This document shows positions 20,623 to 51,106 of a stretch of DNA of 64,000 nt, one piece after another. Below the pieces are notes generated by a model. It did not search any database. It was not told where the DNA came from and saw only the letters and a program-made list of their open reading frames with translations. Positions within the stretch are counted from its first letter, which is position 1. The number at the start of each line of letters is the position of its first letter. The DNA is from a virus, in the IMG/VR virus record IMGVR_UViG_3300021961_000023. One strand, written 5' to 3'. The position numbers were made by a program, and so were the translations under genes.

Positions 20623-21280
20623 ATGAAAGAAGGCTTTATTACGAAAGATGGGTACGCTGCAGTACCTTTTGGCAATCAACTCATGATTATTTTTAACGGA
20701 CAGCAGATTAAAGTTTGTCGCACCGTAGATTCAGCACACAAGTTTATCAAAGCACATCGTGCCAGCCCAGAAACTGGCACAGTGTTTGTCTGATCGATTC
20801 CTTTTACCTCTATAGTATTCATGAAAACTTCAACTGCCATGTGCGTCAAGAAAAAGTTTGTCTCTGTCACTCCATTGTCAAGTAAAGCAAAGAATCGATT
20901 CATCAACATTATGAACTCGTTTCACTCTTGTGAAGTGGAACAGGAAACTGCTGATAAGTTCTTTCTTGTTTCTTTGAATCGTCAATACTGCTTCTGGATT
21001 CAAAAGCAAGGAAATGAGCACTGGAAGATTGAAAGGTAAATAGAACTGTGCTATAATCCTACAACCTGGAGGAATTCCTTTGGAAGATCTCACTCAACAA
21101 AAACGCAAAGATGCATGGGGTCTCTTCTATGAGAGCGTTTTAAAACCAGATCATGATCTTCGTCAAGATTCTCATGATCAGAAGTGTTTTAATGAACTGA
21201 TGGGATGGAGAGACGAAATACTTCTATATCTTAAAACAAGATACCACCAAGAGTTCGGACTACAAAGCGGAGATGAATGA
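20623..21280 (+). CDS. Three small hypothetical proteins (20623..20793, 20821..21039, 21080..21280)
   Basis: Tandem + strand ORFs; early element copy 2 at 20759..20816 and a TGCTATAAT -10 near 21049. Confidence 0.6.
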
Positions 21281-32495: not shown

Positions 32496-33356
32496 ATGAA
32501 ACCTTTATTCATTTGGGCAGGTGGTAAAAATAAAATGTTGAAGCACTATCTGCCTCTGATGCCCACAGAGGTTAATAGTTATTGCGAACCATTCTTTGGT
32601 GGTGGAGCAATGTTTATCCATGTTGTAAAAACTTATAACCCATCACGATTGGTAATCAATGACATCAATGATGATGTTATGAACATCTATCGTTCGATTG
32701 CATATGATTATGAAGTTTTCAAAGATAGACTGAATAATCTTGAGGAAAAGTATATTCCTTTGGACAAAGCAGGTCGTAAAGCATTCTACTTTGAAGTGCG
32801 ACATGAACATGCATATGATTATGAACAGTGGTCAAAACCAGTAGAAGCAGCAACTCTATACTTCTTGATGAAGACTGGTTTTAACGGTATCTATCAGTTG
32901 AATAAAAATACCAATGGACGTTATGGAACTCCATCTGGATTATTAAATCAAAAGGATACTGTATATGATCGGGATGTGCTAGATTGGTGGCATCTTGTTC
33001 TACAAAAAACAGAGATTCTTTCTGGCGATTACAATAATGCAGTTCAGGATGTAAAATCTACTTTCCACTTTTTTGATCCTCCATATCGTGATAGTTTTGC
33101 AGATTATGGCAATGGATTCAGTGATGAGGATCTTCTGCACCTGATTGCAATTTCTGATCTGCGTAGGAATGTATTTCTATGTAATCGTGATAGTGGAGAT
33201 GGTTGGTTTGATGATCATAAGATGAGTCTCAATATTGCTAGATTCCCTGTAACTTATACTGCAGGACGACGTAAGAAAACTGATACAGGATTTGTGGCAA
33301 AACCTGCCACTGAAGTTTTGCTTTATCGTACAGTTCAAAATAATCTTTTTGAGTGA
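32496..33356 (+). CDS. D12-class (Dam-family) N6-adenine DNA methyltransferase; specificity probably not GATC
   Basis: WAGGK, EPFFGGGA (motif I), INDIN, DPPY (motif IV); extended -10 TGCTATAGT at 32467..32475. Confidence 0.9.
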   Translation: MKPLFIWAGGKNKMLKHYLPLMPTEVNSYCEPFFGGGAMFIHVVKTYNPSRLVINDINDDVMNIYRSIAYDYEVFKDRLNNLEEKYIPLDKAGRKAFYFEVRHEHAYDYEQWSKPVEAATLYFLMKTGFNGIYQLNKNTNGRYGTPSGLLNQKDTVYDRDVLDWWHLVLQKTEILSGDYNNAVQDVKSTFHFFDPPYRDSFADYGNGFSDEDLLHLIAISDLRRNVFLCNRDSGDGWFDDHKMSLNIARFPVTYTAGRRKKTDTGFVAKPATEVLLYRTVQNNLFE

Positions 33357-39400: not shown

Positions 39401-42400
39401 GTATGTTCAACTTCTTAATATCAAAGGGTGGTCACTCTTTCAAGGATCTGTAACTTGGAATGATTACCCATCTTGGCCTTATCTTCAAATCAAATCAGGA
39501 ACTGGTAGCACACTGAGCATACTCTTTTGGGCATATAAGTTTGGATTTGATTTAGACATTCTTTCCCGTACTTGGCACTGGGATTGGTTAGACAAAGCAA
39601 ATGAGGAAAGTGAAGATGTACAGCACTCTGGTCCGTGGGACTGATAAAAAAGGAGTTAAACTAAACTGGTGGGAATATTGGATTGGTCATTGTTGGATGA
39701 CTGGGTGGCAGAGCATTGCGATGACTTTTCGCATTTGGTCTGATTTAATGTGTTCTAACTACGATGGTTATGCTCTACTTAAAGGAGATGATCCAGAAGG
39801 TGAATGTATAGAATGGTTCTGGGCATCACTAAATGAAGATGATGTTTATCCTAAAGAGTTTCTTGAGGAACTCATGCAAATGGCAGATGATGTGGAGACT
39901 GGTAAAGTAAAGACATATCCATTACCTGAAGACTTCTTTGATAAAATGAAAGATCTTGTGGGTGATATTGAAGTAAACTTAAATGAGCAGTTACCTGATG
40001 AAACTACCTGACGATAATCAACTGAATATTATGTGGAGTGTGGCAACGTCGTCCAGTATTGAAAGTGGCACACGCCCCCACCTAATCTTTGCCAGGTTGC
40101 TGTATAGTACTCTTACAAACGAAAAACCACGGGTAGGACTTGCAAATGACGTACAAAGCATCTCTTAAAGTTCAGTTTGATACTGAATGGACTTCCACTC
40201 ATTATAGCAGTGGTTTTGATGATTCAATGCTCCCCGAAGAGCATTATACTTTTCAGGTTCCTGCCGAAGACCTTAACACTTATCAACTGTTTCGTTTTTT
40301 CGCAACTGTTGCCCGTGCAATGGGACACGATGACATCAACATTATGAAAGGTGCTTGTGGTCTTGCATTTGGTGAAGAGAGGAAACCAGAAGATATGCGT
40401 AAAGTTGCCGAAGAGTTTGAACTGACTCTTGCAGAAGATTTGCAAGATAAGTTCAAAGATTGGAAAGAAGCAGAAGCAGAATGGGAGCGTCTTAAAAAGG
40501 GTCCTATGGGAACTGTTCTGGCTGATGATGTTGAAGCAGAATGAACTACCTTTGTTTGGTTGATGGTCTACTTGAATACATGAGCACTAGTCCATCACAC
40601 TTCGCACACTATCAGTTAGTGTATGCTGAAGAGCACCGTGATGCTAACGTTCAGTATCTTACTCTGACTGATGAAGAGTATGATGAAATGTTCCCTTGTG
40701 AGGAGGATGAGGAATGAGTCTGATTGATACGCTAGAATACTTCATCGATGACCAACGTGGTCGTCTGCAGGATATTGAATGGGAGATCCGCGAAGAAACA
40801 AACTACGATAACGAAGGGCATGATGAACGTATGGCAGACTTCTGTGAGCAATATGATGAACATGTAGAACGTTTAGAAGATCTCAAACAAATCAAATCTA
40901 TCATCGAGGCACAACTATGAGTGAAGATATTCCTTGGGTGATTGGATTGACTGATGAAGAAGTTCAAGAACTCCGCAGTAAGAAACAAGAACTCACAGAA
41001 TATGGAAAGGAGAAAATACGAGAACTTATGAATGATGGTAAGTTGAGGTTTTATGATAAAGGAAAAGAAACTCTCACAATAGATGGTAGTTCTTGGGGGA
41101 AAATCCAAACTCCAGAAATGAAATTAGAGATCAAAGAAATGACACACGAGGAAATGCTTGAAGAAGCAGCAAAACGAGAAGCAGAAAACAAAGCATTAGA
41201 AGCAGTAGAAAAACTTTATGCTGAAAATGGTGATGCTTTAAAAGAACTTGCTGCGATTGAACGACAGGAACTGATTGAACAACTAGAAGTCAAGAAGAAA
41301 GAAAACTTCCGACTGGTTGCAAAGGCGTGTATGCAAGAGTATGAGAAGACATACAATCATGATACATTCCCAATGAGTGAACATTGGGTGTATATGGTCA
41401 GTGAGTATTTTGGCACAGGTGAAGGTCAAACTACCTGCATTATGATGACACAGGCAAGTCCTGGTCATGCGGAAGATTTTGAAACCTCTACCAATAAGTA
41501 TGTTGCTTGCACAACCAAAGAATATCGTGCAGTGCGTGAGTTTCATAAACAGTTTGGCACTTGGATGTTGCACGGATTGAAGTTTGTAACCAAAGAGGAT
41601 TTCTTTGCAAGTTATGCATATTACATTCCACCAGTGATGATGAAACTGTCTAATAAACCGTGTTATAAAACTTTCTACACTTACGTTCACTACAACTTCT
41701 CATGACCGATAAAGAACTCTACAACCCCGATGAGTTTCTGCTTGATAACATCAAAGGGTATCACTATGAGGTGATGGATGAAGGGCATCATGTGTGGATG
41801 GCATTCTATTTTGAGAATGGCAACACAGGACACTTGAATATCTTCCTGAATGATGGTAAGATTAACACACGTTATGAGGAATGGGTGAATGACTGACAGA
41901 GACACCTATTATAATATGAGTAAGTGGGATTGGTTCCTTGAGGGATTCCGTCACCTTCCTTATATCCTTGATTGTTATGAGACCGTAGAGCACTTTCCTG
42001 ATGACTTCTGGGAGGGATTATCTTGGGGTTGGATGACAGAATATATCTATCCTTATGATGATCCTTACAATCCTTATCTGTCACGTGAAAGAAAGTTGAG
42101 ACTGGGAAGATGGTAATACTTCATAAACTCATAATCACCAACAAGTATCTCCGTTACACTCCATTCTGGTGGTGGTGGAGGTTAATGTCCCACGAAGGTT
42201 TCAGGTTTGATGACTACTATGTGTGGGGTGAGTTCTGGCATTCTCTCAGTAGTGGATGGGAGCATATGGAATATGTGAATGAGTTTGAGAAGTATTGGGG
42301 TGAAGGTTCCTATCCACCAGAGAAGATTGTTCTACCCAAAGAGGACTTTGATGCTCTGGTAGATAAGTTGAATGAACCACCACAATATAATGAAAGTATT

Positions 42401-48953: not shown

Positions 48954-49850
48954 ATGCAAAACAAACACATCGAACACCCCGAAGATTCTATCCTTACGGG
49001 CGACCTTTCTGTTCTTGATTGGTTCATTCAACCTGGCAATCTTTCGGTAAAGATTGATGGTGCGCCTGCAATTGTGTGGGGTATTGATCCTGCCTGTGGT
49101 GAGTTCTTTGTAGGAACCAAAGCAGTCTTTAACAAGAAAAAGATTCGTATCGCTCACTCTCATGAAGAAATTGATGCGTTCTATCAAGGTGAGGTTGCGG
49201 TTATTCTGCATCGTTGCTTTGATTATCTTCCTCGCACCAATGGTATCTTTCAAGGTGACTTTATTGGTTTTGGCGGTTCTGATGAGTATTGCCCCAACAC
49301 GATTACTTACAAGTTTGGTGAGGTAGTTTCAGAGGAGATTATCGTTGCACCTCACACTTACTACATTGCAGAGAATGATCTGCGTGATGCTGTTGCGTAT
49401 CCGATGAAGTTTACCATCACGGATACTCCTTACGTGAAGTTTGTTCGTCCTGATGCTTACATCATGCACAATCAAGAATCGTTTGCTGATGTTAAAGAGG
49501 TGTGCGACTTTGCCCGTCAAATGTCTACCACTGCACACTTCGTAACTGATAAGGAAGCAGCAAAGATCAAGCAACAACTTAATGCCTGCATTCGTGCTGG
49601 TGAAGATCCTAACCCTAACGACTTTGAATGTGATCCTAACCTGATTCGTTTCTGGGCATTGGTTAAATCAATCAAAGATGATTGTTTGTTCCTGTGTCGC
49701 AATTGTGGTCCTGCTGCTTATCTTGGATACAACAGGATTGATGCAGAGGGTTATGTCCTCTCCAATGAGTTTGGCACGTTTAAGTTAGTCAATCGTGAGG
49801 TATTCTCTCACGCAAACTTTAACAATGGGCGGTTCCAGTGTGCCAGTTGA
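48954..49850 (+). CDS. DUF6267-like protein with ATP-dependent ligase (nucleotidyltransferase) motifs
   Basis: HIEHPED; SVKIDGAPA (KxDG); FQGDF; EGYVL; FKLVNR. Confidence 0.65.
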   Translation: MQNKHIEHPEDSILTGDLSVLDWFIQPGNLSVKIDGAPAIVWGIDPACGEFFVGTKAVFNKKKIRIAHSHEEIDAFYQGEVAVILHRCFDYLPRTNGIFQGDFIGFGGSDEYCPNTITYKFGEVVSEEIIVAPHTYYIAENDLRDAVAYPMKFTITDTPYVKFVRPDAYIMHNQESFADVKEVCDFARQMSTTAHFVTDKEAAKIKQQLNACIRAGEDPNPNDFECDPNLIRFWALVKSIKDDCLFLCRNCGPAAYLGYNRIDAEGYVLSNEFGTFKLVNREVFSHANFNNGRFQCAS

Positions 49851-49923
49851 GGTAGTGGCACAACCCCCCTTGTGATCCGCTGGGATCTGTGCAATACTTA
49901 AAGAGTCAAAGAAAGGCAACGCA

Positions 49924-50238
49924 ATGCGTAAGATCGAAAAGCAAATCATCGCTGCAATCAAAGAGAACAAAGATCTCAAGATTGCAAACTCTGAAGTGAT
50001 CTCTTGCTCTAACGTTTCTGATGTTTACCTGCACGGCAATTTGATTGCTCGCATTGGTGAAACTTGGATGGAACTGTTCGATGGTGGTTGGCGTTCGAAC
50101 ACCACCAAATCGCGTCTGAATGCTCTACTTTCTGCCTTCGGTATGGAAGGAGAGTATGTCTTCCAGAAGAACTTTCAGTGGTTCGTTAACTACAACGGTT
50201 CACCGATTCCGTTCTTCTCAGGTATGCGTCTGAACTGA
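49924..50238 (+). CDS. Conserved cyanophage early hypothetical protein
   Basis: VYLHGNLIA...GGW.SNTTKSRLNALL. Confidence 0.7.
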   Translation: MRKIEKQIIAAIKENKDLKIANSEVISCSNVSDVYLHGNLIARIGETWMELFDGGWRSNTTKSRLNALLSAFGMEGEYVFQKNFQWFVNYNGSPIPFFSGMRLN

Positions 50239-50265
50239 GTGGGGTTATCCCCCCACTCTTTTTTT
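50237..50265 (+). terminator. Rho-independent terminator
   Basis: GAGTGGGG-TTATCC-CCCCACTC followed by a T7 run. Confidence 0.85.
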
Positions 50266-50485
50266 GTCCTCATTCATTATACTCATGGCAACAACTTCTT
50301 TCGCTCACGGTGATTCCTACGGTGTGACCGATCATTATAATTTTGATGATCGTGACTTTGATGACTTTTACACTGCCGAAGATTATGATCAAAAAAGGGC
50401 AGAGAGGGACGGTTGGCGAACTGCCTACTGGGATGGTCGGTTCTGATCATTCTGTGCCTATAATACCTGAAGAACAAACAACCTC

Positions 50486-51031
50486 ATGGCACATCACAAC
50501 AACTTCAAAGGCGGAATTCAACCTGGCACTGTTGCGTTTGATGAGCAATCCCGTGCCATGGATGATAATGCAAAGTCTGCAATGATTCGTGTTGCTGACC
50601 TGCTGCAATCATCCTATCCTGAGTTAGTTGTACAATCGAAACTTGATCAGTCACAAATTCCTGGTGGCGTCGGTTCGTGTGCTCCTGACGGTGGAGTTTG
50701 GTTCTACAAAGGTCAACTGATTGCTGCCTTTGAGAGTAAGAAACAAGGTGCAAAAGGTAATGCAATCGAACGCTGGTTCAAGAACAATTTCATCGTTCGT
50801 GCTATCAATCCCTCTGCAACTTATGTCACGTTTGCATCAGGCGATGGCGTAGTTGCAGGCAATCCGATTCATCGAATCCTGCACATTGCACACCAAGGGT
50901 TATACGGTGTGATGAATGAAGTTCAGGTTGGCACTAACAATCTCCACTGTAAAGTTGAGGGGTTCAGTGTTGATGAGATGAGCAACATTATGATCGAAAC
51001 TCTCACAAACGTTCTGGAGTGTGCCAGTTGA
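50486..51031 (+). CDS. EcoRI/MunI-family type II restriction endonuclease-like protein
   Basis: PDGG...AFESKKQG...GNAIERWFKN...YVTF aligns by eye with EcoRI PDGG...AEAKHQG...GNAIERSHKN...YVLF. Confidence 0.8.
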   Translation: MAHHNNFKGGIQPGTVAFDEQSRAMDDNAKSAMIRVADLLQSSYPELVVQSKLDQSQIPGGVGSCAPDGGVWFYKGQLIAAFESKKQGAKGNAIERWFKNNFIVRAINPSATYVTFASGDGVVAGNPIHRILHIAHQGLYGVMNEVQVGTNNLHCKVEGFSVDEMSNIMIETLTNVLECAS

Positions 51032-51106
51032 CAAGGTGGCACAAACCCCCTTGTGGATCCCCTGAATCCGTGCAATACTAAAGCATACCAAACGAAACGA
51101 AACCAA

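Follow-up and report, generated by a model that had tools for sequence, protein, structure and literature searches.

A compact EcoRI-like nuclease and a Dam-class methylase as a candidate AATT restriction-modification pair of T4-like cyanophages

Can a phage gene that carries the catalytic and DNA-reading motifs of EcoRI, and that has no methylase gene beside it, be part of a restriction-modification (R-M) system? The gene in question lies at 50486..51031 on the plus strand of the virus record IMGVR_UViG_3300021961_000023, of which a stretch of 64,000 nucleotides was analysed (the window). Complete R-M systems are regarded as bacterial defences, and viral ones are documented mainly in giant algal and amoebal viruses. 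T4-like cyanophages are among the most abundant viruses in water. A reading of the window made without database searches (the sequence-only reading) had proposed that this open reading frame (ORF) encodes a compact EcoRI-like endonuclease, which would form an unlinked R-M system with a distant methylase of altered specificity. Our results agree with the core of this proposal. With a probability of roughly 0.72, the ORF is the endonuclease of a phage-borne Type IIP R-M system that has the following methylase as its second part and AATT as its predicted target.

50486..51031, plus strand: nuclease (R) gene, predicted 181-amino-acid, small EcoRI-fold PD-(D/E)xK nuclease, with P67-D68, E83, K85, Q87, G91-NAIER-96, K99 and N100
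32496..33356, plus strand: methylase (M) gene, D12 (Dam-class) N6-adenine DNA methyltransferase of the nuclease-linked subfamily, with I6, Q134 and L150, DPPY kept

An EcoRI-like core in a small phage protein

The ORF was found exactly as the sequence-only reading had described it, with the segments PDGG, ESKKQG and GNAIERWFKN. In an alignment of 37 family sequences, P67-D68, E83, K85, Q87, G91-N-A-I-E-R-W97, K99 and N100 are invariant. The family profile, searched against 177,635 PDB sequences, had EcoRI as its only match (E 4.6e-5). This match is collinear: an N-terminal helix is followed by PD...EAKxQG, which corresponds to EcoRI residues 86-116, and by GNAIER-x-x-KN, which corresponds to residues 137-149. 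The catalytic PD...(D/E)xK residues P67-D68, E83 and K85 align to P90-D91 and E111-A-K113 of EcoRI. The recognition segment GNAIER (EcoRI 140-145), together with K148-N149, is present as G91-NAIER-96, K99 and N100. As had been noticed before, the EcoRI stretch between KHQG and GNAIER is nearly absent; EcoRI residues 117-136 have no counterpart, and three residues bridge the gap. The arms of EcoRI are missing too, the phage protein having 181 amino acids against 276-277 residues in the EcoRI chains of the PDB.

The fold paints the same picture. An AlphaFold2 model built from the family alignment reached a predicted local distance difference test score (pLDDT) of 88 and a predicted template-modelling score of 0.84, and it has the three-dimensional fold of EcoRI. 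Foldseek returned EcoRI as the top match of the model (E 1e-6, probability 1.0, template-modelling score 0.66-0.69). No other structure matched the model strongly. VIA-align placed 153 of the 181 residues on EcoRI with a Z of 14.8, a root-mean-square deviation of 2.4 Å and 23% identity, compared with a Z of 9.8 for the best unrelated chain and 8.3 for MunI. Because the profile, the motifs and the predicted structure all match EcoRI, the nuclease is, as modelled, a remote and stripped-down EcoRI homologue without the EcoRI arms. The gene is under purifying selection, with a ratio of nonsynonymous to synonymous substitution rates of 0.06-0.2 against the clade relatives of the window.

Searches with the nuclease in Pfam, NCBIfam and PADLOC, as well as a single-sequence search of the PDB, gave no match. 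PHROGs returned phrog_2400 only, a family of unknown function. Some of the database relatives carry a precomputed tag for PF02963, the Pfam EcoRI model.

Variants of the recognition motif occur among the 82 nuclease loci, with GNAVER in two and GNAHER in 11; the latter we take to be the MunI form of the motif. These 11 loci form a clade (L068, L070, L072-L080) with GNAHERWYM in the place of GNAIERWFK, an AATT observed-to-expected ratio (O/E) of 0.17-0.42, and a linked methylase 54-57% identical to that of the window. A second motif, GGIQ-x-G-x-x-A-x-D, is found near the N-terminus (residues 8-19; window 50486-50545) and shows no or almost no variation within the family. It sits in a part of the model with low confidence (pLDDT 52-67) and could possibly make a DNA or a dimer contact.

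Relatives of the nuclease amounted to 151 proteins in a word-indexed search, and to 226 clusters at 50% identity in an exhaustive one. They abound in uncultured aquatic viruses, and almost all are 165-200 amino acids long and unnamed; a cluster look-up of ten longer, distant relatives gave no informative names. In IMG/VR, 123 contigs have a relative of the nuclease. Among 50,697 cultured phage records the gene was carried by 65, all of them Synechococcus myoviruses (S-RIM2 isolates, S-BM1 and S-CREM2), and about 400 other Kyanoviridae records sharing the DUF6267 gene, including S-SRM01, are without it. When one genome each of about 185,000 prokaryotic species was scanned, a single 2.9-kb contig of a metagenome-assembled genome matched. 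Therefore, the close members of the family appear to be essentially confined to phages, as seen by a scan seeded with family-specific motifs.

Partnership with a Dam-class methylase

No methylase adjoins the nuclease in the window, as the sequence-only reading had stated. The sole D12 methylase of the window is the one at 32496..33356, about 18 kb away. It matches Pfam PF02086 with 105 bits, against a cut-off of 22, and contains FFDPPY. Among the IMG/VR carrier loci, a homologue of this methylase adjoins the nuclease on the same strand in 65 of 80. These linked methylases are 32-65% identical to the window methylase, mostly 45-65%. The gap between the two genes is 4-86 bp in about 50 loci, almost all with the nuclease first and the methylase second, and 0.95-1.5 kb in 15.

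The same cultured phages carry both genes. A methylase homologue at 60-80% identity was found in 64 cultured phage records, and those listed are all S-RIM2, which is also the main carrier of the nuclease, and every other D12 methylase of the cultured cyanophages is at most 35% identical to that of the window. In S-RIM2 the order is nuclease (SWTG_00030), a gene of 351 amino acids, methylase (SWTG_00032) and helicase, which places R and M 1.2 kb apart. In S-CREM2 the adenine methylase gp8 is found 0.9 kb downstream of the nuclease gp11, and the paper on this phage does not treat the two as a system. Furthermore, the R-M genes of S-CREM2 (L175, OR473000.1 3837-10313) sit among other conflict-type genes: gp12 is annotated as a Cas9-like virion endonuclease, gp10, between R and M, as a pyrimidine-dimer glycosylase, and gp6, just beyond the methylase, is an S-adenosylmethionine hydrolase.

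The two genes also diverge together, as the pairwise distances of R and M are correlated (Mantel test, Spearman r 0.80, p 0.001, 48 non-identical pairs), which points to co-evolution. The shared carriage in cultured phages, the adjacency in 65 of 80 loci and the co-divergence strongly support the unlinked partnership with the methylase at 32496 that had been suggested for the window. It is highly probable that R and M are a functional pair.

The same data bear on another explanation, in which the ORF is no restriction enzyme but a free-standing nuclease of the mobile, homing or repair type, or else a DNA-binding relic without activity, and simply tends to occur close to a Dam gene within an early region that is variable. 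Its patchy presence in the Kyanoviridae (about three cultured species among 460 records), its position among shuffled early cassettes and the empty searches of Pfam, NCBIfam and PADLOC would suit such a gene. However, an independent gene would not be expected to lie 4-86 bp from the methylase in about 50 loci, or to diverge together with one specific methylase subfamily. In addition, the catalytic triad is invariant, and the AATT signal described below would be left unexplained. We therefore regard this explanation as most improbable.

The candidate R-M pair of the window is of the split kind. The window's own clade (L002-L010 and L012) is among the loci that have no methylase close by. The nearest outgroup to this clade (L011, nuclease 72% identical) is still linked, with a gap of 60 bp. 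In G004, the sole complete genome of the window clade (190 kb), the methylase lies about 18.5 kb from the nuclease, in the same layout as in the window. The linked outgroup and the repeated split indicate that the separation by about 18 kb arose secondarily and has been stably kept. A second, unrelated D12-type methylase with the N-terminus TPLRYPGGKS was detected in G004 (40672-41406; L163) and as a second match in L062. It is 22-24% identical to the window methylase, and these phages therefore have more than one adenine methylase.

Which sequence would the nuclease-linked methylase modify? In EcoDam, R124 contacts the guanine of the fourth GATC base pair and K9 and Y138 read the first pair, and in the R124A mutant GATT and GATG become methylated faster than GATC (PMC4417163). 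The window methylase aligns to EcoDam with correct numbering at Y119, N120, L122, R124 and P134. It keeps the hairpin N120, a hydrophobic residue at 122 and P134, has a two-residue insertion in the hairpin, and carries I6, Q134 and L150 at the positions of K9, R124 and Y138. The residues with which GATC Dam enzymes read guanine are therefore absent, which fits the altered specificity proposed for this methylase. In every nuclease-linked methylase the R124 position is occupied by Gln, and in nearly all of them that of K9 by Ile, Met or Val. Lys and Arg are retained in the unlinked D12 methylases of the control cyanophage loci, as in DpnM and EcoDam.

Gln with adenine in the place of Arg with guanine is the textbook route from G:C to A:T recognition. 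The adenine modified by M.EcoRI in GAATTC is the same as in A-m6A-TT (m6A, N6-methyladenine). Given that GATC and AATT have the inner A-T in common, and given the substitutions in the reader residues, we infer that the target of the methylase switched from G-m6A-TC to A-m6A-TT. GATC is not avoided in the window, with an O/E of 1.43 by base composition and 0.79 by Markov model.

Loss of AATT sites and its possible causes

The window contains 121 AATT, compared with 568 expected from its base composition (O/E 0.21; 0.28 by second-order Markov model). The depletion is even, as every 4-kb bin falls between 0.12 and 0.46 and all ten NAATTN classes between 0.06 and 0.48. Carriers, defined as nuclease loci of at least 8 kb, were compared with controls, which were uvsW-anchored loci of the window phage's close relatives with no nuclease in the locus. 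The median AATT O/E was 0.29 in carriers and 0.55 in controls (p 6e-8), and after dereplication 0.30-0.31 and 0.57-0.59, respectively (p 9e-6 and 0.009). Without any prior, AATT ranked first of 136 reverse-complement-collapsed 4-mers for differential depletion in carriers. In cultured isolates, the O/E was 0.15 in S-RIM2, which has both R and M, and 0.36 in S-CREM2. It was 0.81 in S-SRM01, a non-carrier which, judged by the DUF6267 gene (65%), is nearest to the window phage among cultured phages. The AATT depletion reported by the sequence-only reading is hence real for the window and tracks nuclease carriage in its relatives. Each part of the sequence-only interpretation that computation can address, namely the EcoRI likeness, the partnership, the changed methylase residues and the link of AATT depletion to carriage, was supported.

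The flanking bases give information on the length of the site. In controls, only the palindromic hexamers GAATTC, CAATTG, AAATTT and TAATTA are low, and AAATTG and CAATTC are at 1.0-1.4. In carriers, AATT is low in all flanking contexts, and the carrier-specific depletion is strongest for non-palindromic flanks. Because every flank is affected in carriers, the composition favours AATT, with 4 bp, over GAATTC as the target, and AATT is the probable recognition site of the pair. Alternatively, the pair could read a longer or degenerate site containing AATT (for example RAATTY), or an unrelated site, with GNAIER conserved for structure only. Enzymes of the EcoRI, MunI and ApoI type share the AATT core yet read 6 bp, 121 AATT remain in the window, the GNAHER variant is present in 11 loci, and sequence is no reliable guide to specificity. 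Nevertheless, the window is depleted in each of the ten NAATTN classes, the loss specific to carriers peaks at non-palindromic flanks, and one lineage has lost every AATT whatever the flank. Moreover, the EcoRI segments outside the core are absent from the nuclease, and the change from Arg to Gln at the G-reading position of the methylase fits A:T outer pairs. We consider this alternative unlikely.

The lineage without any AATT is represented by three contigs (G001-G003), which are probably one lineage sampled three times. They have an intact nuclease and zero AATT in 74-100 kb, against 400-537 expected, and a D12 methylase, sought across 74-112 kb of these contigs, was not found. A tentative and rather doubtful interpretation is that some such lineages would practise restriction without modification, and would tell self from non-self only by having purged every AATT from more than 100 kb. 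AATT is also near zero in methylase-bearing lineages (L013, L035, L044 and L045). A general rule by which methylase-less carriers always purge AATT was rejected, as it is contradicted by L026 and L039, which are small fragments of 5-11% of a genome.

Several observations weigh against an AATT-directed R-M system. The nuclease does not match the Pfam EcoRI model PF02963 at E<=1 and does not reach its gathering score, and ten of the 37 relatives match this model weakly, below threshold, with a best E of 1.6e-4. Between G004 and the window, the methylases are only 57% identical and the nucleases 84%, so that unlinked R and M are not always inherited together. Of 53 methylase-anchored Q-type loci (L176-L226), 28 lack a nuclease within 4 kb, their methylases being orphan or split, and show an AATT O/E between 0.01 and 0.83. 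Carriers and controls were sampled from different regions of the genome, the statistics carry no phylogenetic correction, and the control phages, at 0.55, are already moderately AATT-poor. Among carriers the depletion is very uneven (O/E 0 to 0.9), and in S-CREM2 it is weak by the Markov model (0.77). Two loci, L026 (379-897) and L039 (1812-2312), keep the nuclease at nearly normal AATT (O/E 0.69 and 0.85). They are laid out as gp96-R-DUF6267, and the very place that the methylase takes in relatives is empty; since these contigs represent 5-11% of the genome, their methylase may be located elsewhere. In addition, three AATT sites lie within the nuclease gene of the window, about as many as would be expected without depletion.

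The strong avoidance of other sites also counts against the proposal. CCGG is absent from the window (0 against 88 expected), from 50 kb of S-RIM2 (L229; 0 against 99) and from G001-G003 (0 against 201-280), and AGCT and GGCC have an O/E of 0.07-0.17 by base composition in the same sequences. Several 4-bp palindromes are hence strongly avoided besides AATT, presumably as host restriction sites. Such loss of CCGG, AGCT and GGCC indicates that avoidance driven by host restriction is at work, and this could explain the loss of AATT too.

An explanation built on this keeps the R-M pair as real, and attributes the AATT depletion to AATT restriction enzymes of the host or of the whole community rather than to the phage nuclease. 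The module would then have been captured mainly for its protective methylase, with the nuclease as a passenger or an addiction partner. In its favour, CCGG, AGCT and GGCC were purged without a matching phage nuclease, controls with no nuclease nearby are still AATT-poor, the nuclease gene itself is not depleted, and many Q-type methylases have no adjacent nuclease, some of them in genomes almost free of AATT (L180 0.01, L212/L213 0.03). It is more difficult to reconcile with the purifying selection on the nuclease, whose catalytic and recognition residues are all kept even in methylase-less genomes. AATT is, furthermore, the 4-mer that best separates carriers from non-carriers, and the closest cultured non-carrier, at 0.81, is not depleted. 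We consider this explanation rather unlikely, and prefer the reading in which an active phage nuclease and its methylase act on AATT.

Gene surroundings, proposed mechanism and known systems

The nuclease gene is surrounded by the following features.

48954-49850: DUF6267 gene
49839..49905, plus strand: nearest upstream copy of the early cassette, before gp96
49924..50238: gp96 (Kyano_Gp96)
50237..50258, plus strand: terminator-like hairpin and T-run that follow gp96 and precede the small ORF and the nuclease
50285..50446, plus strand: acidic ORF of 53 amino acids (13 D+E against 6 K+R), between the upstream cassette and the nuclease
50459..50464, plus strand: TATAAT, a -10-like hexamer 21 nt before the nuclease ATG, with no recognisable -35, as read from the sequence
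50514..50519, no strand assigned: GAATTC inside the nuclease gene, whose AATT cores are at 50515, 50656 and 50786
51019..51085, plus strand: early cassette, a palindrome GTGCCA-N10-TGGCAC with TTGACA inside, then GTGCAATACT; it overlaps the nuclease stop codon and serves the next gene

The sequence-only reading had placed the nuclease on its own early promoter cassette. This detail is partly right. In some close relatives (L003, L004, L005 and L007) a full cassette is found directly upstream of the gene, and the window has none in this position. A scan for sigma-70 promoters called no promoter directly upstream of the nuclease gene. The leader behind the TATAAT at 50459-50464 is conserved in L009. 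The GAATTC sites that had been listed at 21072 and inside the nuclease gene are both present, the latter at 50514. The nuclease genes of the window and of L002-L006 hold three to four AATT each, and those of L007-L011 none or one. Over all carriers, the AATT O/E is 0.38 in R genes and 0.13 in M genes.

The acidic ORF is 87% identical in L009 and 47% identical in L103, and it is absent from the other close relatives. As a conserved partner of the nuclease, either regulator or inhibitor, it was rejected, since its restriction to L009 and L103 indicates that it is not a general part of the R-M system. Conceivably it acts as a DNA mimic or regulates the nuclease, or it is simply one more gene of the early cassettes.

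In relatives, the common layout is gp96-R-M-DUF6267. The order in the window is DUF6267-gp96-R, which reveals a local rearrangement. A megablast search of the nuclease locus against cultured phages gave no match, and the window thus derives from an uncultured phage.

How could the system work? In most related phages R is followed by M as a pair, and in the window clade the two genes have become separated by about 18 kb. The nuclease would represent a minimal EcoRI core, in which the PD...ExK centre is combined with the GNAIER and KN elements that read and clamp the AATT core, the arms having been lost. We infer that it cuts unmethylated 4-bp AATT, presumably as a homodimer. The methylase would be a Dam derivative with changed readers of the outer bases (Arg to Gln at EcoDam 124, Lys to Ile at 9), producing A-m6A-TT instead of G-m6A-TC and thereby blocking the nuclease. 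The phage itself would be protected by methylation, and in addition by having shed about 80% of its AATT sites. Site avoidance would make replication less risky, and one lineage may rely on it entirely in the place of methylation. Unmethylated DNA of the host or of a co-infecting phage would be cut. By analogy with chloroviruses and marseilleviruses, the pair could serve in the breakdown of host DNA or in the exclusion of co-infecting phages, and a selfish addiction module is a possible alternative role. Our confidence in any one of these roles is low.

Two parts of this picture were already known, namely virus-encoded R-M systems as a kind, and the likeness to EcoRI in one GenBank annotation, that of S-CREM2 gp11 as "restriction endonuclease EcoRI". 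Our literature searches turned up no paper on the family as an R-M system, nor any on its Dam-derived methylase, on the split arrangement or on the purge of AATT. Where cyanophage papers deal with such methylases, they count them only as anti-restriction or "nucleotide metabolism" genes.

If the proposed system is confirmed, T4-like cyanophages would have a widespread R-M family, with 123 viral contigs and about 226 protein clusters at 50% identity. An EcoRI core of roughly 175 amino acids may be a minimal AATT reader, and a Dam enzyme was apparently retargeted from GATC to AATT by few residue changes. Both enzymes would therefore be attractive for studies of specificity evolution and for enzyme engineering. 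The R-M system also offers a concrete explanation for the loss of AATT up to its total absence. It can be tested directly in cultured pairs, for example with S-RIM2 and Synechococcus WH7803. Furthermore, it suggests that R and M can persist 18 kb apart, a pair which annotation pipelines seeking adjacent genes would miss.

Among the known systems, EcoRI (PF02963; PDB 1ERI, 1CKQ) resembles the phage nuclease in its fold, in the catalytic P-D...E-x-K-x-Q, in the identical GNAIER and in the K-N phosphate clamp that follows it, all in the same order. In contrast to EcoRI, the phage nuclease is 96 residues shorter, lacks residues 117-136 and much of the C-terminal half with the arms, and has a 4-bp rather than a 6-bp site as predicted from composition. 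Its family is phage-borne and nearly absent from cellular genomes, and its partner methylase is of the D12 (Dam) class. M.EcoRI belongs to a methylase family other than D12. MunI (CAATTG) and MluCI (AATT) are, like the phage nuclease, compact PD-ExK enzymes with an AATT core. MunI has the weaker structural match to the nuclease model (Z 8.3) and no detectable match in sequence. A review groups EcoRI, MunI and MluCI as possibly mosaic relatives (PMC4081073).

On the side of modification, the Dam enzymes of E. coli and T4 and DpnM share with the phage methylase the PF02086 match, DPPY, the hairpin N120, a hydrophobic residue at 122 and P134. Unlike in these GATC enzymes, the G:C readers are replaced in the phage methylase (K9 to I, R124 to Q, Y138 to L), and the hairpin carries an insertion.

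As for whole systems, chloroviruses use R-M pairs for the degradation of host DNA, and marseilleviruses for the exclusion of competing viruses (PMC7253447). Like the cyanophages in the present proposal, these are lytic viruses that encode complete Type II R-M pairs. They differ in that they infect eukaryotes and have unrelated enzymes with other sites (GATC, CATG and so on). In the cyanophages, by comparison, the candidate pair is carried by T4-like phages, its two genes need not be linked, and the predicted target site is itself purged from the genome.

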